Assembly: GCA_018897195.1 (NCBI GenBank)
Contig: JAHILH010000001.1
Location: 220,565-284,564, forward strand
Length of the DNA stretch: 64,000 bases
Direction of reading: 5' to 3'
Source of the DNA: Patescibacteria group bacterium
GTDB lineage: Bacteria; Patescibacteriota; Patescibacteriia; Patescibacteriales; UBA12075
Position 1 is the stretch's first letter. Every line of letters starts with the position of its first letter. Below are positions 2,985-55,226 of this stretch, piece by piece. A program made the position numbers and the translations under genes. Below the pieces are notes generated by a model. It made no database searches and was not told the DNA's origin. It was given only the letters and a program-made list of their open reading frames with translations.

Positions 2985-4817
2985 TTAGTTGCTTAATTTT
3001 TTTTCAATTTCCTCGAATAATTTTTGGATATTATCATTTGTAGTTTTATCCAATTCAACGTCCGTACCATTTTGGCAACATTCCAGAAAATTCTTAGCAA
3101 GCAAAACTTTATCTTGTTTTGTGGTTTTGACATACTCTGAATTTGCCCCCGTGTAGATATTATTCTCATCACCAAGAACATATTTTTTAAAGTCTGTTGG
3201 CGAAAAAATATCTTCAACACTTCCTGTCTTGCTTATAATTGTGAGGATTACATCTTTTGTTATTAGCCAGTTATTTATAAGATTTTTTTCGCCATCTTTT
3301 TTACCCTTGTCATTGTCATAAAGATAAACAACCTTTCCGCCCCATCCATGTATAATGGTGCCAACAATTGGCATATTTCCGGAGCCACCACCAAAAATAA
3401 AGTTCACACTATTATTTTTAAAAATTTTTTTGAAAGCGTTTAGATAATAAACATCCGAAGGACCTTCAACTACAACGTTGTTTACTTTATCTAGCGCAGA
3501 TATTCCAGCATTTAACTCTAACCCAATAGCCGTTAAAATTGGCGTCAAAGTTTCTTTATCCGCTAAAGCGTGAATTTTATTTTCAATATGTGTTCCTAGT
3601 TCATTGGTGCGGTGGACCAATCGTACCCTGTTCAACTTCTCAGCTTCCAATAAATATGGGGAATGTGTGGAAAAAATTAACTGAACCTCTTGTGCAGAAG
3701 CTTCAAGTTTGCCTAAAATATCTTCTTGCGCCTTGGCGTGTAAAAATAATCCTGGCTCGTCAATTAAAATAATATTTGGTACGTTTTCATTTGCCCTAGC
3801 TGAAACTTTTATATAAAATGCAAGATGCCATTGTCGCCCCTTACTTCGCAGAGTTGGCTCATAAGGGTAGCCATCCTCCTTTATCCAAAAGTAGAGATTT
3901 TCTGAATCCCAAGTGATGCTTAAATTTGAAATATCCTGCGTCCAAAATTTCTCGAAATCATTATTAAGCTTAATGTTTATGTCATCTTTGTGTTTTTCTT
4001 TTACTCTTGCGTCAGCACCCTTTATTGTGGTTATTTTTAAATCGCTAATAATTGACAAATCTTTAATCCATTCGCTACTCTCTAATTCTGTAAATGGAAT
4101 TTTGTTTGGAAATATATCTTCAAATGAATTAAACAGAATAAAATTTGGTATATATTTTTTTAACTCTTCTAAAAAATTTATTTCGTAGGACAAATTTTTC
4201 TCAAGATCATTTATCTCTGTTTCTATTTCTGTCAGTAGTTCTAAAAAATTATCGCGGTCATTTTCGTCAATATGAGATATGTTTGGCGCAGCGGCCTCCT
4301 TGAAGCTAATAAAGAGTGTTTTTTCGTTAGTAAAATTTAAAAATTCAAAATCAAACAAATCACCACCTAGTGCCTCATAGCCCAAGCGGATTGTTTTTAT
4401 CTTGCTCCATTTATCCATTATTGTTTTTTTAGTTTTCTCTATTTCTTCGTGGCTAAAAATTTCTTTTTGCGAGGTGCATTGACCAAAAGAATAGTTATCT
4501 GGGAAAGTTTTTATTAATTCAATTTCAACATCACTTGCAACCTTGAGCGGATTTTTTATTTCCTGAAGAATTTCATTGATGTCATTTTTTTCTATTATAA
4601 AAGAGATTGAAATTTCTGGCGTGCTGTCTGGAGATTTTATTGGTTTCGCAGATTCTCTTATTTTATTATTTGTGTCAAAATCCTCTAATGCTTCAAGAAT
4701 AGTCGTTTTACCAGATTCATTTTTTCCTGCGAGAATAGTAATCGTATCTGTTAAGTAACAATCACCGCTATCAGTAATGGACTTGAAATTTTTAATTCTA
4801 AATTTTTTTAACATCAT
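2985..4817 (-). CDS. OLD-family ATP-dependent nuclease (ABC-type ATPase plus C-terminal Toprim), stand-alone class-1-like
   Basis: 610 aa. N-terminal FRIKNFKSI...GKNESGKTT Walker A, a long coiled-coil insertion, ILIDEPGLFLH Walker B and FSTHSP H-loop. C-terminal Toprim with VVVEGPSD (Glu) and YDNDKGKKD (DxD). No adjacent helicase. Confidence 0.8.
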   Translation of the reverse strand: MMLKKFRIKNFKSITDSGDCYLTDTITILAGKNESGKTTILEALEDFDTNNKIRESAKPIKSPDSTPEISISFIIEKNDINEILQEIKNPLKVASDVEIELIKTFPDNYSFGQCTSQKEIFSHEEIEKTKKTIMDKWSKIKTIRLGYEALGGDLFDFEFLNFTNEKTLFISFKEAAAPNISHIDENDRDNFLELLTEIETEINDLEKNLSYEINFLEELKKYIPNFILFNSFEDIFPNKIPFTELESSEWIKDLSIISDLKITTIKGADARVKEKHKDDINIKLNNDFEKFWTQDISNLSITWDSENLYFWIKEDGYPYEPTLRSKGRQWHLAFYIKVSARANENVPNIILIDEPGLFLHAKAQEDILGKLEASAQEVQLIFSTHSPYLLEAEKLNRVRLVHRTNELGTHIENKIHALADKETLTPILTAIGLELNAGISALDKVNNVVVEGPSDVYYLNAFKKIFKNNSVNFIFGGGSGNMPIVGTIIHGWGGKVVYLYDNDKGKKDGEKNLINNWLITKDVILTIISKTGSVEDIFSPTDFKKYVLGDENNIYTGANSEYVKTTKQDKVLLAKNFLECCQNGTDVELDKTTNDNIQKLFEEIEKKLSN

Positions 4818-6458: not shown

Positions 6459-7394
6459 TTAGAATCCAAGGTACTGAATTTCCTCATGCAATTGAATTTT
6501 GTATTTGTCGCGAACTTTTTGTTTGACAAAACTAATCAAGGTTATTACATCTTTGGCGCTTGCATCACCAGTGTTGACGATGAAATTGGCGTGCTCTAGG
6601 CTAATTTTGGCACCGCCAATCTTCTTGCCACGTAAATCAAGCTGATCAATCACCCATCCGGCGGCAATTTTGTTATTTTTAATTATGCCCTTCTCCGTGG
6701 CAGTCTCGTATAGGTCTATATTCTCTGCCTTGATAAAATCAGCGTCAAAGTTTTTAAAAACAGAACCGGCGCTAGGTAGTCTTGGCTGTGTCTTGCCTCG
6801 GTGTTCAATATATTTGCCAACTAATTCCTGTATCTCACCTTGTTCGCCCTTTTTTAATTTTAAAAATATTTTCCAGATAATATATTTTCTTTCCTCTTCC
6901 TTGAAGATGCTATCACGATAGGCAAATAGACAATCTTTACTGCTTAATATCTCCATTTTATTTTTTTCTAGGTTAAAAACTTCTACTATTTCTACAGTAT
7001 CAGCAATTTGTCCGCCAAAAGCACCGGCATTGCCGCGAACGGCGCCTCCAATTGAACCCGGAATACCAGCCGCCCACTCTAGGCCAGACAAGGATTCTTT
7101 GGTGGCCATAGTCACAGCTTTGGAAAGGCTAGCGCCAGCTCCACATTCCAATCTGTCACCGCGCATAATTAAATCATTATTTTGCAGGCGAATAACTACT
7201 CCATCAAAAACGTCATCATTAAATAAAACATTGCTACCACCTGCCAAGATTAACCATTTTAATTTTTCCGCCTCAATCCAGGCAAAAACATCTTTTAATT
7301 CCGTATCGTCGCCCACCTCAACATAAAAACGAGCAATGCCACCGATTTTAAAAGTAGTGTAATTATTTAATTTTATATTTTCTTGAATGTTCAT
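6459..7394 (-). CDS. murB: UDP-N-acetylenolpyruvoylglucosamine reductase
   Basis: 311 aa. N-terminal NYTTFKIGG, FAD-binding GGGSN-like (AGGSNVLF) motif and full MurB collinearity. Confidence 0.9.
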   Translation of the reverse strand: MNIQENIKLNNYTTFKIGGIARFYVEVGDDTELKDVFAWIEAEKLKWLILAGGSNVLFNDDVFDGVVIRLQNNDLIMRGDRLECGAGASLSKAVTMATKESLSGLEWAAGIPGSIGGAVRGNAGAFGGQIADTVEIVEVFNLEKNKMEILSSKDCLFAYRDSIFKEEERKYIIWKIFLKLKKGEQGEIQELVGKYIEHRGKTQPRLPSAGSVFKNFDADFIKAENIDLYETATEKGIIKNNKIAAGWVIDQLDLRGKKIGGAKISLEHANFIVNTGDASAKDVITLISFVKQKVRDKYKIQLHEEIQYLGF

Positions 7395-7410
7395 AATGTT
7401 ATTTTTTCTC

Positions 7411-7581
7411 CGTCATCCCCGCGAAGGCGGGGATCCAGGTACCTAGTATCTTATTTTCAGTATAAGGATAATTAAAATTTAAAATGTATTTATTATTATC
7501 AATATTTTTATTAAGACGAGTTTCTATAGTTATGTACCCAAGGTCAGTGGCGCCTGGATCCCCGCCTTCGCGGGGATGACG
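7411..7581. mobile_element. MITE-like non-coding element, copy 1 (171 bp, 29-bp perfect terminal inverted repeats)
   Basis: cgtcatccccgcgaaggcggggatccagg (7411-7439) is the exact reverse complement of 7553-7581. Each arm holds a local hairpin ccccgc-gaag-gcgggg. It is homologous along its whole length to 43989-44160. Confidence 0.75.
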
Positions 7582-7590
7582 CCATTGGTG

Positions 7591-8142
7591 TCATTTTCTA
7601 AAACTGAACTCACAGCCACAATATGTTTGTCTGTATAAATTTAATTCCTTGGTAAGCTGGCATGATTTTTTAAAACCATCACCCTTTTTAAAATCTTCCT
7701 CTAAATATTTAATGCCGTATTTATTAGCCAACTCTAAACCTATACGATTGATGCGCTCAGCGTCTTTGTGTGGACTAGTGGTTAGTGTTGTCCCAAAATA
7801 ATCAAAGCCCAACTCTTTTGCCTTTTGTGCTACCGCCTCTAGACGATCATGGTAACAAACGGTACAGCGCTTCCCCTTCTCTGGCTCTTTTTCTAATCCC
7901 TTTACCATTTCCAACCATGTTGTATGATCATAATCAGCGATAATCATTTCATATTTATATTTTTCCGCAATTCGCTTCGCCTCCTCTAGGCGTTTGTCAT
8001 ATTCGGCGCTTGGCCAAATATTTGGATTGTAAAAATATAAAACAATTTGCGCAAAATCATTTTTCAAAACGTCAATTATGTAGGCACCGCAGCCCACACA
8101 GCAAATCTGCATTAATATTCTAGGCTTTTCTGGTTCGGGCAT
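7591..8142 (-). CDS. queH: Epoxyqueuosine reductase QueH (DUF208)
   Basis: 183 aa. N-terminal ICCVGCGAY cysteine motif and C-terminal YRQTYCGCEFS motif, both typical of QueH. Confidence 0.8.
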   Translation of the reverse strand: MPEPEKPRILMQICCVGCGAYIIDVLKNDFAQIVLYFYNPNIWPSAEYDKRLEEAKRIAEKYKYEMIIADYDHTTWLEMVKGLEKEPEKGKRCTVCYHDRLEAVAQKAKELGFDYFGTTLTTSPHKDAERINRIGLELANKYGIKYLEEDFKKGDGFKKSCQLTKELNLYRQTYCGCEFSFRK

Positions 8143-36405: not shown

Positions 36406-36441
36406 TCGAAAACCACCTCACCCCGACCCTCTCCTGGCCAG
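36406..36441. repeat. GC-rich hairpin repeat, family B, copy 1 (cctcaccccgaccctctcc-tggcca-ggagagggaga)
   Basis: Stem ccctctcc/ggagaggg. It lies 15 nt downstream of the rpoD stop. The same sequence family is at 41452, 42504, 55135 and 55186. Confidence 0.75.
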
Positions 36442-36455
36442 GAGAGGGAGATATA

Positions 36456-37898
36456 TTAGTAATCTCTTAGCTTTTGAATACCATCATGCTTTTGAACTTT
36501 TTCCAAAGCCTTGGCTTCGATCTGACGGATACGTTCTCTGGTAACGTCGAACTCTCGACCGACTTCTTCCAGGGTATGTGCCACGCCGTCGGTTAGACCG
36601 AAACGCATTTCGATAATCTTTTGCTCTCTTGGGGAGAGTTGTTGAATTACCTCTTTTACATAATCTTTCAAAAGTTGCAAAGCAGCCGAACGATCTGGAG
36701 TTACTGAGCGAACGTCCTCGATGAAGTTTTCCAAAGTGGAATCTTCGTCGTCGTCGCCGACGGATGTTTCTAGGGAAATTGTATCTTGGGAAATCTTGAT
36801 GATGTGACGAACCTTGTCGATGTCTTCGTGCATTTCGGCGGAAATTTCTTCTGGCAATGGTTCACGTCCTAGGTCTTGGATTAATTGTCTTTCAATCTGG
36901 GTAAACTTATTAATTGTTTCAACCATGTGCACTGGAATACGAATAGTTCGAGATTGATCAGCCAGGGCACGCGTAATCGCTTGACGAATCCACCAAGTCG
37001 CGTAAGTTGAGAACTTGTAACCCTTGCGATAATCAAATTTCTCAACCGCTCTAAACAAACCAATATTACCTTCTTGAATCAAATCTAATAAACTCAAGCC
37101 CTTGGCGCCGGTAAACTTCTTGGCAATCGAAACTACCAAACGAAGATTGGCTTGAATTAATTTGTGCTCCGCTCTACGGTCACCACGTTCTTTTCTCTTC
37201 GCCAATTCAACCTCATCCTCAGTCTTTAATAACGGTACACGACCAATTTCCTTCAAATACATTTGAATTGAGTCAGAGCTCAACTTGGACAAATCAGCGA
37301 TATCGCGACCAAGTACATTGCTACCCTCAAAGACACGTTCTTTTTTCTTGGGCGCATCACCATCTTTCTTGGCTACAAAATTATCCGTATCCAAAAAGCT
37401 TGTCTCCAAAATCTTGCCAGTATCTTCAATAATACGTACGCCATTTCTTTGTAATTTCTCTAGAAACAATTCATAATCATAAATATATTCTTCAACCTCG
37501 GGAAAAACATAAAGCAGCTCGGTCTCGGTTACAAAATCACGAGAACGACCTTTGTTGATCAAGCTATTTACCCTCGCCTCCTCAGGTGGCATTACTTCCT
37601 TTTTTGGTTCTTCAACTTTTGGTACTGGTTTTGGAGCTGGCTTCGGAGCCGGAGCCTCTTTCTCTTTTTTAGCAGACGATTTATGCTCAACGTGTTTCTT
37701 AGCAGGCGTTGTTTTTTTCTCAACCGCTTTTTTTTGTGTTACCACAATTTTTTTAACAACATGATTCTTTACTGGTGCTTTTTTTGGCAATTCTTTCTTA
37801 TCTACCTTTTGCTGCTCCTTTCCCTTACCAACAAGCTTAGCTGCGGTTTTGGCAGTTTTCTTGATAATATCTTTCATTGTTGTTTTTAGTTTAGGCAT
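36456..37898 (-). CDS. rpoD: Primary RNA polymerase sigma factor RpoD with Lys/Pro-rich N-terminal extension
   Basis: 480 aa with [40 protein letters not shown] (region 2), then regions 3 and 4 ([23 protein letters not shown]). Confidence 0.95.
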
Positions 37899-41399: not shown

Positions 41400-41451
41400 A
41401 TATTTTAATGCTATTTATAATTTAATATATTCATTTTGCCACGAAAAACTA

Positions 41452-41487
41452 CCTCACCCCGACCCTCTCCTGGCAAGGAGAGGGAGA
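41452..41487. repeat. GC-rich hairpin repeat, family B, copy 2
   Basis: cctcaccccgaccctctcctggcaaggagagggaga, 6 nt downstream of the stop of the 41493-42464 gene. Confidence 0.75.
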
Positions 41488-41492
41488 ATAGA

Positions 41493-42464: not shown

Positions 42465-42503
42465 AAATTTATAACTCCCTATATAATTTTCATAGCCCTT
42501 CTA

Positions 42504-42538
42504 CCTCATCCTAACCTTCTCCTATCCAGGAGAAGGAA
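42504..42538. repeat. GC-rich hairpin repeat, family B, copy 3 (diverged, with compensatory stem changes)
   Basis: cctcatcctaaccttctcctatccaggagaaggaa. The stem is ccttctcc/ggagaagg where the other copies have ccctctcc/ggagaggg. It lies 10 nt after the aminopeptidase stop. Confidence 0.7.
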
Positions 42539-42547
42539 CCAAAAAAT

Positions 42548-43960
42548 CTAGTTCTCAAAAAAAGCCTTATATGCTAAATAGGTTGAATAAATATCCGCCT
42601 TTGAGGCAATCTCCATCGGCGCGTGCATATTAAATAGAGGCACACCGATATCGATAATCTCCAGATTGCGAGATGCCATGAACATGGCAATAGTGCCACC
42701 ACCACCTTCGTCAACCTTGCCCAATCCAGCTGATTGCCAAATAACACCCGCTGCATTCAAAATGGTCCGAATCTTTTGCACATACTCCGCATTTGCCTCA
42801 GATGTTGAGCTCTTACCCCTGTGACCCGTGTGTCGTTCTAAGGCAACACCAAAACCCAAACGTGCGGCATTGAGTGGATCATGTACGTCTTTGTAATCGG
42901 GATCATAACCAGCGGTTACGTCACTAGACAAGGCCATGCTACGAGAAAAAAGTTCATGCACTTCACTAAAACCCTTTGGTTTGCCAACCAAGCCTAATAA
43001 TTTAGAAATGGTTACTTCGAAATAATTAGAAATGGCGCCAGTCAAACCCTCTGAACCAACTTCTTCCTTATCCACCCAATAAATAATCTGCGTTTGATTT
43101 ACAGATTTTGCGGTCAACAAGGAGTCAAAAGAGCCATACGCACAAACACGGTCATCTTGGCCGTAAGCAGCCACCATGGAGCGGTCAAAGCCCAAATCGC
43201 GTGCCTTGGCTGATGGCACAGCTTCAATCTCCGCACTATAGAAATCTTCCTCAATCATGCCATATTTAATGTTCAAATGCTCAAGGATTGCCAATTTCAC
43301 CCGCTCCTTAATATCTTTATCAACAACAGGAATTGAGCCAATTAAAATATTTAATTCCTCTGCCACGATTCCTTTATCTAGTGTCTTTTCCATTTGACGA
43401 CGAGCCAAGTGTGGCAACAAATCAGTAATCATAAAAATAGGATCATTGTCGTCCTCACCAATCACAAAAGAAACCTGTTTACCATTTTTTAAAACAACAA
43501 AACCGTGCAAAGATAATTGGATAGTCGGCCAATGATATTTCTTGATTCCGCCGTAATAATGCGTTTTTAAAAAAGCCAATTTCTCATCCTCATAGAGCGG
43601 CATAACCTTGGCGTCCAAACGCGGTGAGTCAATGTGCGACATCACCAAACGAAAACCCTCGTCAAATAGCTTCTTGCCAATCACGCCAGCAATCAAGCCC
43701 TTGCCGCGATTTACAGAGTAAAATTTATCACCCGCTTTCAAACTCTTTAATTCCCCAACACTCTTAAAACCTTTTTTCTTTAAAATCTCCACACCAACCG
43801 AGACTGCCTCGCGCTCCGTCTTCGCCTTATTCAAAAAATCCTTATACCCCTCCGAAAAAGCCAAAGCCTTCTTCTGCTCCGCCTCACCCCAAACATCCCA
43901 ACAATTCCGCTTCGCGAAAGTCAATTCTTTTTCTATTTTTTTGTAATCTTTTTTCGGCAT
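42548..43960 (-). CDS. M18-family aminopeptidase
   Basis: 470 aa with SHIDSPRLDAK, HYYGGIKKYHW and C-terminal metal-ligand regions typical of M18 aminopeptidases. Confidence 0.75.
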   Translation of the reverse strand: MPKKDYKKIEKELTFAKRNCWDVWGEAEQKKALAFSEGYKDFLNKAKTEREAVSVGVEILKKKGFKSVGELKSLKAGDKFYSVNRGKGLIAGVIGKKLFDEGFRLVMSHIDSPRLDAKVMPLYEDEKLAFLKTHYYGGIKKYHWPTIQLSLHGFVVLKNGKQVSFVIGEDDNDPIFMITDLLPHLARRQMEKTLDKGIVAEELNILIGSIPVVDKDIKERVKLAILEHLNIKYGMIEEDFYSAEIEAVPSAKARDLGFDRSMVAAYGQDDRVCAYGSFDSLLTAKSVNQTQIIYWVDKEEVGSEGLTGAISNYFEVTISKLLGLVGKPKGFSEVHELFSRSMALSSDVTAGYDPDYKDVHDPLNAARLGFGVALERHTGHRGKSSTSEANAEYVQKIRTILNAAGVIWQSAGLGKVDEGGGGTIAMFMASRNLEIIDIGVPLFNMHAPMEIASKADIYSTYLAYKAFFEN

Positions 43961-43988: not shown

Positions 43989-44160
43989 CCGTCATCCCCA
44001 CGAAGGCGGGGATCCAGGTACCTCGCAGATTGTTTTTAGAATAAGTAGAATTAAAATTTACGAAGTTTTATTTGTTATCAATTTATGTATTAAGATTAGT
44101 CTCTATGATTACGCATCCATTGTCTGTGGCGCCTGGATTCCCGCCTTCGCGGGAATGACG
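43989..44160. mobile_element. MITE-like non-coding element, copy 2 (172 bp)
   Basis: Termini cgtcatccccacgaaggcggggatccagg (43989-44017) and cctggattcccgccttcgcgggaatgacg (44132-44160). Its internal blocks align with copy 1 (attaaaattta, tatcaat, attaaga, tctat), in the same orientation. Confidence 0.75.
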
Positions 44161-44167
44161 AATGTAT

Positions 44168-44893
44168 TTAAATAACCATCCCATACTGCAATTTCTCTTT
44201 TGCCAAAATTTGCGCCTCGAGCAAACTATCAAAAGTCCCGGCATCAAGCCAAGCGCCATTCACTATGGCTGTTTCCAATTCACCTAATTGCAGATAATAA
44301 TTATGCAAATCAGTAATCTCAATCTCGCCACGATGACTTGGTTTTACATTTTTTGCTGCTTCTATAACACGGTTATCATATATATATAGTCCGGTAATCG
44401 CGTAATCACTCTTTGGTTTTTCAGGCTTTTCTTCAATGGAAATGGCTTTCATGTTTTCGTCAAATTCAACTACACCAAAACGCTTGGAATCATCAACTTT
44501 TTTAGCAAAAATTTTACCCCCCTTTTTAAAATTTCTTATGTCATTGCTAAAATCATCTTCAAAAATATTATCTCCCAAAATCATCGTTACATCATCATTC
44601 CCAATAAACTTCTCACCAATTATAAAAGCATCAGCTAGACCACGAGGACTATCCTGCACTTCATAGGTAAAATCGACTCCGAATTCACGGCCACTGCCCA
44701 GTAAATTCAAAAAGTTACCAGCTCGCTCTGGCGCAATGATAATCATAATCTCCGTAATTCCAGCCTTAATCAAGGTGTTTAACGGATAATAAATCATCGG
44801 CTTATTATAAACCGGCAATAACTGTTTTGAGGTAATTTTCGTACACGGTCTTAATCGTGTTGCATTCCCTCCTGCAAGTATAATTCCTTTCAT
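44168..44893 (-). CDS. rfbA: Glucose-1-phosphate thymidylyltransferase (short form)
   Basis: MKGIILAGGNATRLRPCTKITSKQLLPVYNKPMIYYPL. The track ORF extends to 44914, but the start at 44893 is preferred. Confidence 0.85.
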   Translation of the reverse strand: MKGIILAGGNATRLRPCTKITSKQLLPVYNKPMIYYPLNTLIKAGITEIMIIIAPERAGNFLNLLGSGREFGVDFTYEVQDSPRGLADAFIIGEKFIGNDDVTMILGDNIFEDDFSNDIRNFKKGGKIFAKKVDDSKRFGVVEFDENMKAISIEEKPEKPKSDYAITGLYIYDNRVIEAAKNVKPSHRGEIEITDLHNYYLQLGELETAIVNGAWLDAGTFDSLLEAQILAKEKLQYGMVI

Positions 44894-44945
44894 AGTTTTT
44901 CCTCGCCACACCATAGCTTTTTAGCGACGGCGGGTATTTTAAATA

Positions 44946-55076: not shown

Positions 55077-55134
55077 ACTTTTATTATAGTACTTAATTAT
55101 TAAAAATTGATTAAAAATTGATTACAATTTAATT

Positions 55135-55168
55135 TCCCTCGCCTTTGCAGGAGAGGGTTAGGGTGAGG
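55135..55168. repeat. GC-rich hairpin repeat, family B, copy 4 (inverted orientation, degenerate)
   Basis: tccctcgcctttgcaggagagggttagggtgagg. Its reverse complement is cctcaccctaaccctctcctgcaaaggcgaggga. Confidence 0.6.
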
Positions 55169-55185
55169 TAGAAACTTTATTAATG

Positions 55186-55226
55186 CTCCCTCACCCCGAC
55201 CCTCTCCCGGCGGGGAGAGGGAGAAG
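55186..55226. repeat. GC-rich hairpin repeat, family B, copy 5
   Basis: ctccctcaccccgaccctctcccggcggggagagggagaag, 5 nt downstream of the rseP stop. It forms a larger palindrome with copy 4. Confidence 0.75.

Follow-up and report, generated by a model that had tools for sequence, protein, structure and literature searches.

The 171-bp element at positions 7411–7581 was probably a head-to-head (HH) dimer of CGTC-1 REP sequences, which correspond to the NTS and to the Ssn-related motif (SRM), arranged around a 113-nt spacer. Accordingly read, its two arms are putative sites of an Ssn nuclease. As judged from its sequence, the unit resembled an isolated dRS3-RS-dRS3 (NIME-type) unit and also a REPIN. 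The 171-bp composite is best classified as a new Parcubacteria family of a known repeat class, and not as a transposon relic. The evidence was obtained from the window, i.e., the whole stretch of 64,000 nucleotides of DNA that was analyzed, and from the comparison of its two copies with related loci in genomes, metagenomes, and viral contigs.

Structure of the element and its two copies

The GC content of the window was 37%, and 57 of the 61 ORFs of at least 90 aa were located on the minus strand. Together with a GC skew that was negative throughout, this strand bias indicates that the window represents one replichore arm, whose genes run in the direction of replication. Both copies of the element were intergenic and were located between minus-strand genes, namely, between queH and murB and between an RmlA-like gene and an M18 aminopeptidase gene.

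In copy 1, arm A (7411–7439, plus strand) had the sequence CGTCATCCCCGCGAAGGCGGGGATCCAGG, and its exact reverse complement formed arm B (7553–7581, minus strand), which carried the arm-A motif on the minus strand and faced the queH stop codon. The two 29-nt arms were 100% complementary and 113 nt apart. The core between them (7440–7552) was AT-rich, with a GC content of 0.25, and was the counterpart of the RS-like spacer in dRS3-RS-dRS3. Taken separately, each arm formed a hairpin with a stem of 8 bp (ATCCCCGC/GCGGGGAT) and a GAAG loop. Thus, the perfect 29-bp terminal inverted repeats, the AT-rich core, and the local hairpins with a GAAG loop that had been described in an earlier, sequence-only reading of the window were all reproduced. 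The queH gene (7591–8142, minus strand) was located upstream of the element and ended 9 nt from it, and the murB gene (6459–7394, minus strand) was located downstream and started 16 nt from it. Both genes were supported by ORFs and precomputed Pfam data, and the ORF coordinates agreed with the distances of 9 and 16 nt read earlier. The 9-nt flank from the queH stop codon to arm B (7582–7590, minus strand) and the 16-nt flank from arm A to the murB ATG (7395–7410, minus strand) were both missing in the empty alleles described below. Moreover, a GGAG Shine-Dalgarno-like sequence in the 16-nt flank spanned the element junction (ACG/GAG, with the junction at the slash).

Copy 2 was located at 43990–44160 in the same orientation as copy 1. 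The orientation had been read correctly, but the start that had been given, 43989, was one base off. Its arm A (43990–44018, plus strand) was a degenerate form of the motif, in which one stem pair is lost through a G>A change, and its arm B (44132–44160, minus strand) followed a core (44019–44131) with a GC content of 0.29 and 73.5% identity to the copy-1 core. The two arms showed 1 and 2 mismatches to the 29-mer. The upstream gene, encoding an RmlA-like nucleotidyltransferase (44168–44914, minus strand), had its stop codon 7 nt from arm B, and the downstream M18 aminopeptidase gene (42548–43960, minus strand) had its start codon 29 nt from arm A. When both copies were aligned with 10-nt flanks, the column identity was 87%. 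The GC contents of the arms (0.66–0.72) and cores (0.25–0.29) formed a marked contrast. Allowing up to 3 mismatches, the 29-mer was matched exactly 4 times in the window against 0.00 expected from 100 shuffles, and no further CGTC hairpins were found in the 64 kb, which held just two isolated units and no arrays.

Several additional observations were made around the two copies. On the minus strand of copy 1, one frame was open across the entire element (7405–7590, 63 codons, HQWRHPREGGDPG...AFAGMTEKK), and the junk peptide VIPAKAGI noted earlier was a correct translation, reading VIPAKAGIQ. A conserved ORF across the element was considered and rejected, as stops interrupted the copy-1 open frame in copy 2. 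Two independent Logan assemblies with the identical murB gene (L002 and L003) both broke 27 nt inside the arm, starting with TGGATCCCCGCC..., which is what a repeated arm in the respective samples would produce. Furthermore, a second, unrelated family of GC-rich palindromes (CCTCACCCCGACCCTCTCC-loop-GGAGAGGGAG, with a 12–13-bp stem and no CGTC tag) was located at several gene ends of the window (approximately 36416–36458, 41450–41488, and 42503–42540, and at 55134–55165 and 55185–55225), and it adjoined a copy of the 171-bp family in the metagenome contig L126 (6063–6170).

Identity of the arms

CGTC-1 REPs are defined by an unpaired CGTC tag, an 8-bp stem starting with AT, a 4-nt loop, and a CCA-type tail (PMC3733652). 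All of these features were found in the arm, the layout of which was CGTC-ATCCCCGC-GAAG-GCGGGGAT-CCA. CGTC-1 REPs are mainly HH dimers with the tags outward and a conserved spacer of usually 20–100 bp, and the class includes Neisseria dRS3 and Rickettsia RPE-6, while RPE-4 corresponds to CGTC-4 (PMC3733652). The 171-bp unit was likewise an HH dimer with a conserved spacer.

The arms were also compared with the degenerate SRM motif HGTCWYN(0-2)YYVSBRHN(0-5)WNVSBRGN(0-2)RNCYNB, for which 0.09 matches per window are expected by chance. Three of the four window arms matched it exactly, at 7411–7438 (+), 7554–7581 (−), and 44133–44160 (−), and the fourth, at 43990–44017 in arm A of copy 2, deviated by no more than one G>A substitution in the stem. 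The Neisseria NTS consensus CGTCATTCCCGCGMAVGCGGGAATCYRG was found with 0 mismatches at 44133–44160. The copy-1 arms differed from it by 2 mismatches, which made up one compensatory pair (T>C, A>G); one mismatch is tolerated in the consensus search of the source paper (PMC11893778). Arm B of copy 2 also showed no mismatch to the dRS3 consensus ATTCCC-N8-GGGAAT (PMC1797815). With regard to NIMEs, the inverted repeat ATTCCCGCGAAGGCGGGAAT was contained in the 44132–44160 arm, and the remaining arms carried its C/G variant; the RS-like sequence of 113 nt was within the NIME range of 50–150 bp, and the two isolated units in 64 kb did not form the arrays of NIMEs. From these matches, the arms can be equated with complete CGTC-1 REPs, i.e., with Neisseria dRS3/NTS and the Ssn-related motif, and not with IS-type terminal repeats. 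At the protein level, nothing was found in a Pfam search of the translated arms, and the NCBIfam/Pfam domain models of Rickettsia palindromic elements gave no match in any stop-free translation with E up to 10.

Distribution of the arms and the partner nuclease

The arm was searched for in one genome per species using the 29-mer with three degenerate positions, and at least 120 stretches were matched. More than 10 phyla were represented, and the 29-mer usually formed head-to-head dimers around short spacers of unrelated sequence. The matches listed included Alpha-, Beta-, and Gammaproteobacteria, Dehalococcoidia, Nitrospirae, Gemmatimonadetes, Planctomycetota, Bacteroidota, Ignavibacteria, and two CPR genomes. 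The earlier mention of similar GC-rich palindromes in other bacteria was correct, but their assignment specifically to AT-rich bacteria was unsupported, as the hosts were mostly GC-rich Proteobacteria. Among the matches listed, the pairs were arranged as 55 HH, 20 TT, and 26 HT, with a modal gap of 30–36 nt. The spacing in the window (113 nt between the arms, or 119 nt between the hairpin bodies) belonged to the upper tail of the listed dimer spacings, and a gap as large as that of the window unit was found in 5 of the 55 HH pairs among the matches listed.

Outside the 171-bp family, the arms occurred as single units, as dimers with unrelated spacers, or as flanks of a GIY-YIG nuclease gene. 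In Azospirillum lipoferum, for example, arms identical at 29/29 positions were located around an unrelated 27-nt spacer, and in N. gonorrhoeae, a dRS3-type dimer had a 51-nt spacer. An autonomous element between distant arm pairs was also considered and rejected, as the pair at L034 enclosed carB and that at L051 enclosed housekeeping genes. In IMG/VR, the exact arm was present in 15 contigs classed as viral. Complete REP-GIY-YIG-REP units were observed in two of these 15 contigs (L161, 3388–3769; L165, 8600–8980), which makes them possible vehicles for transfer between phyla.

Among the matches listed, all 3 HH pairs with a gap of more than 152 nt (338–346 nt; L118 from Peribacteria, L109, and L111) enclosed a GIY-YIG gene of approximately 95 aa, and at one more locus, L079, the GIY-YIG gene was flanked by HH dimers on both sides. 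When homologs were sampled by protein similarity alone, the GIY-YIG gene was enclosed by REPs in 9–10 of 14 cases. The REP type varied with the host, with CGTC-1 in Azospirillum and Aeromonas, ATCCTCGGGCTTGACCCGAGGAT in Rhizobiaceae, and other REP stems in Novosphingobium and Sphingobium. On plasmid AZO_p3 of Azospirillum lipoferum 4B (L141, 255106–256196), an Ssn-type GIY-YIG gene was observed between sufB and sufC, inside a conserved operon, with an HH REP dimer on each side.

The link between GIY-YIG genes and REPs, which was reached here independently from the repeats, was already published in 2025 as the Ssn family (PMC11893778). In N. meningitidis, the 28-nt NTS is recognized by SsnA exclusively in its single-stranded form, and the DNA is cleaved a few nucleotides upstream of it; SsnA modulates natural transformation, and its gene has the architecture NTS-ssnA-NTS (PMC11893778). 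By tblastn, neither the 64-kb window nor approximately 100 kb of related Parcubacteria contigs yielded a homolog of Ssn (GIY-YIG domain cd10448), and none of the best 120 matches listed came from the source contig.

Family copies, orientation, and empty sites

When metagenomes were scanned with the inner arm-core junctions as anchors, three further copies were found at unrelated sites in L124, L125, and L126. With the two in the window and that in L130 at the orthologous queH–murB site, the family comprised 6 copies. Every copy was flanked by genes of one direction and had the same orientation with respect to transcription, with the GTGGCGCC side 3–9 nt after the upstream stop codon and the GGTACCT side 5–29 nt before the next start. 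The orientation was uniform at five independent sites (two-sided p about 0.06), which is suggestive of an orientation bias, and this uniformity is not accounted for by a symmetric pair of nuclease sites. No target-site duplication was found at any of the 6 copies, and the flanks shared no direct repeat.

Empty sites were found in relatives for both window positions. At the queH–murB site, the closest relative of the window, L127 (MraY 93.6% and MurB 87.5% identical), was empty, and its compact TAA-T-ATG junction (4027–4033) was identical to that of the distant L139 (909–915). The junction in L140 was TAA-AATT-ATG, so that the stop-start distance in these three was 1–4 nt, and L128/L129 carried an unrelated 57-nt spacer in place of the unit. 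At the rmlA–pepM18 site, L131/L132, in which the aminopeptidase was 94% identical, had an unrelated 53-nt spacer and no unit. Compared with the empty allele, the filled queH–murB allele was longer by approximately 196 nt, i.e., the unit with its 9-nt and 16-nt flanks. The spacer with the element was shared by the window (7395–7590) and the more distant L130 (2472–2664), with flanks of similar length (9 nt and 14–16 nt).

Because close relatives have empty sites, it was concluded that the 171-bp unit has been both acquired and lost within this group, with no target-site duplication. Moreover, since the unit was present or absent among close relatives, it was not a fixed ancient regulatory region. 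The alternative considered in the sequence-only reading, that orthologous spacers in relatives hold the same sequence, applied to L130 but not to L127, L128/L129, L139, or L140. The presence of the element in the window and L130 but not in the sister L127 implies repeated gain at one site or allele replacement. The sliding-window identity showed no recombination tract and gave no support to an allele transfer between the lineages of the window and L130.

Other variants were observed near these sites. In L135, in which the aminopeptidase was 84% identical, a different CGTC-type HH dimer was located at 2834 to approximately 2990, 11 nt upstream of the aminopeptidase gene; its arms (CGTCATCCTCGGGCTTGACCCGGGGATCCAGG) were of a 9-bp stem/5-nt loop type, and its core was AT-rich. 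In L125 (approximately 2005–2030) and L126 (approximately 7350–7375), the loop of the stop-codon-side arm was replaced by an insert of approximately 28 nt (CGTCATCCCCG-TCCCCAATCAAGCTGAGGATAAACCTCCGG-CGGGGATCCAGG), which lengthened the unit to 195–196 bp; a nested insertion and a REP variant with a long loop are both possible.

The element had first been called MITE-like, and the description as a dispersed repeat without genes was appropriate. A classical MITE in the strict sense, i.e., a deleted derivative of a DDE-type IS that is moved by cut-and-paste through a transposase encoded elsewhere in the genome, was in line with the perfect inverted termini, with the two window copies and four others elsewhere, and with the empty sites in relatives. 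However, the absence of target-site duplications at 6/6 copies in practice refutes a MITE, and the arms were self-contained REP/NTS hairpins that occur in many phyla, singly or with unrelated spacers, unlike IS ends. As had been stated earlier for the window, no transposase was found: no transposase, integrase, or HUH domain was detected by Pfam in the 61 window ORFs of at least 90 aa, approximately 14 of which had no Pfam match at all. This result was based on five Pfam batches, precomputed Pfam data near the element, and close homologues elsewhere in the window. No transposase-coding parent element was found in the window. In addition, the kilobase-spaced arm pairs enclosed housekeeping genes such as carB, and the sole gene found between such arms was that of the GIY-YIG nuclease, of which the core held no remnant. 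A classical MITE was consequently judged highly improbable.

Constraint on the arms and the core

Arm positions 7 and 22 covaried in the 130 exact matches listed, with TA in 89, CG in 38, CA in 2, and TG in 1 (chi-square p = 4e-26). In copy 2 and L124, the T..A variant was present in one arm only, which kept the hairpin of that arm and broke the long inter-arm stem. Therefore, the selected structure was the local 8-bp arm hairpin and not the long inter-arm stem. At the orthologous site in L130, which was located via MurB and thus independently of the element, the arms were identical at 57/58 positions and the core at 85/114 (p = 3e-5). This demonstrated that the arms, not the core, were under strong constraint.

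Selection of a local hairpin is also in line with a strict REPIN, in which a REP doublet is mobilised in trans by a RAYT (HUH Y1, IS200/IS605 type) through recognition of a single-stranded hairpin. The inverted REP pair with a spacer, the lack of target-site duplications, and the uniform orientation relative to the leading strand were likewise consistent with such a REPIN. However, the tag was CGTC and not GTAG, and no Y1_Tnp domain was found by Pfam in the window ORFs. CGTC repeats, moreover, are reported not to flank RAYT or IS200 genes (PMC3733652), and the gene between such repeats encodes a GIY-YIG nuclease (PMC11893778). Mobilisation by a RAYT was accordingly regarded as quite unlikely.

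The core identity among copies was 71–83%, and the identity at third codon positions of the flanking genes was only 46–48%. The core identities were star-like, and the orthologous L130 core was no closer than the paralogs. No core homologs were found among plasmids or outside the 171-bp family, and the core was specific to a few Candidatus Parcubacteria. RNAalifold on the six copies returned the terminal stem only, with no core covariation, so that a structured core RNA was rejected. The core as a decayed ssn gene was also rejected; an HMM built from 15 Ssn homologs gave approximately 0 bits against six frames of the six copies. The conservation of the core is not accounted for by the nuclease-site model, and the core may itself have a function or be constrained.

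Transcription and RNA structure

As the element occupied the spacer between queH and murB, it had been proposed that a murB promoter lies inside the element or that murB is expressed by read-through. On the transcribed strand, promoter-like sites within the element did not exceed chance, and for this reason read-through from queH appears more likely than an internal promoter.

The element might instead act as a host cis-acting RNA, that is, as a hairpin between the cistrons that protects the message upstream of it or uncouples and tunes queH–murB translation, with its DNA properties being secondary. REPs near stop codons affect expression in E. coli. Furthermore, the placement of all copies in one orientation between co-directional genes, 3–9 nt after a stop codon and 5–29 nt before a start codon, the very stable predicted RNA stem (−78.7 kcal/mol, z = −9.7), and a core conservation that exceeded the synonymous-site level were in favor of this role. 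However, relatives do well without the unit and keep the coupled TAA-T-ATG junction, and the compensatory change in the arms saves the local hairpin and sacrifices the long stem. The core lacked covariation and a conserved fold, and the same arms occur in very different contexts in other phyla. An RNA role as the primary function was thus considered unlikely.

In Rfam at gathering thresholds, only a tRNA was found in the window, and the element had no match. Under permissive settings, the element gave matches to Wolbachia WsnRNA46 (RF02625; 39.5 bits) and Francisella FtrB (RF02748; 27.4 bits), which could point to a related small RNA gene. However, these scores were well under the gathering thresholds of 65.3 and 66, respectively, and the aligned columns consisted of the arm sequences GTCATCC..GGATCCAG only. 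Plant miRNA hairpin models, which also aligned to the arms only, scored equally. With no promoter, no terminator, and no conserved core structure, a small RNA gene was deemed exceedingly improbable.

An intrinsic transcription terminator between queH and murB was suggested by the GC-rich hairpin directly after the stop codon. Nevertheless, no T-run followed the stem on either strand, 0 terminator-like sites were obtained in the scan, and the murB start was located 16 nt downstream with no promoter-like site between. The probability of a terminator was considered close to nil.

Proposed function and its implications

By analogy with SsnA of Neisseria (PMC11893778), each arm would fold into a hairpin when single-stranded, and a cognate Ssn nuclease would bind this hairpin and make its cut a few nucleotides to the 5' side of the CGTC tag. 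Since one arm is on the plus strand and the other on the minus strand, cleavage would be expected immediately beyond either end of the unit, on opposite strands. Such sites could mark single-stranded DNA, incoming or replicative, for cleavage, through which recombination would be modulated. In the host, the unit is probably transcribed in the queH–murB message by read-through, in which its hairpins would form a passive intercistronic structure. The translational coupling through TAA-T-ATG in empty alleles would then be replaced by the GGAG ribosome-binding site at the junction.

For the spread of the unit, an Ssn-linked or recombination-mediated process on single-stranded DNA was favored over cut-and-paste transposition. 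In a more specific version, the family would be a non-autonomous derivative of NTS-ssn-NTS units that is still spreading in Parcubacteria by Ssn-driven, strand-specific single-strand insertion, and the asymmetric conserved core and the fixed orientation, with the unit always 3–9 nt downstream of a stop codon on the side of the leading-strand gene, would reflect that insertion mechanism. This combined proposal was held to be unlikely. If true, it would be the first evidence of Ssn units as transposon-like replicators with MITE-like offspring, and such replication would take place in ultra-small bacteria, for which a dependence on the uptake of DNA is assumed.

The interpretation as a dimer of putative Ssn sites assigns an oddity of the window to a family for which the partner enzyme became known as late as 2025. 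It also extends this repeat family to bacteria of the Candidate Phyla Radiation, whose genomes are roughly 0.6 Mb and in which intergenic bases are costly. In the literature searched, no descriptions of REPs or MITEs in Patescibacteria were found. Moreover, a natural experiment is provided by one operon junction with and without the unit, i.e., TAA-T-ATG versus a spacer of 196 nt that brings a new ribosome-binding site. Should a cognate Ssn be encoded in Parcubacteria, the repeats could bear on their handling of incoming single-stranded DNA.

Comparison with known repeat systems

As in the NTS/SRM and Ssn family (Chenal et al. 2025, PMC11893778), the motif in the window consisted of an unpaired 5' tag, a hairpin, and a C after the palindrome. 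Unlike in that family, the motif pair enclosed a conserved non-coding 113-nt core and not an ssn gene, and the host was a Parcubacterium with approximately 37% GC, in which nuclease cleavage is predicted and an effect on transformation is possible.

With CGTC-1 REPs (Di Nocera et al. 2013, PMC3733652), the unit shared the tag, stem, loop, tail, HH homodimer, and conserved spacer. Its spacer of 113–119 nt was longer than the usual 20–100 bp, and the phylum of its host was outside the five phyla listed in that study. RPE-6 and RPE-4 belong to the same REP superfamily and yield similar junk peptides on translation; RPEs are often in frame inside genes, whereas both window copies were intergenic.

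The NIME arrangement dRS3-RS-dRS3, described as Neisseria-specific, has 20-bp dRS3-type inverted repeats around a 50–150-bp repeat sequence of lower GC content (PMC1797815), and its profile of GC peaks and troughs was reproduced here by the arms (0.66–0.72) and core (0.25–0.29). However, the window units were isolated, whereas NIMEs are found in arrays, and the sequence of the RS core was unrelated.

Finally, the likeness to the REPIN-RAYT system included an inverted REP doublet as the repeated unit, the lack of target-site duplications, and hairpin recognition on single strands. The differences were in the tag, CGTC versus GTAG, and in the partner enzyme, GIY-YIG versus HUH Y1. In both systems, the partner is a single-copy gene flanked by its own repeats, which in the case of the CGTC repeats is the nuclease gene.
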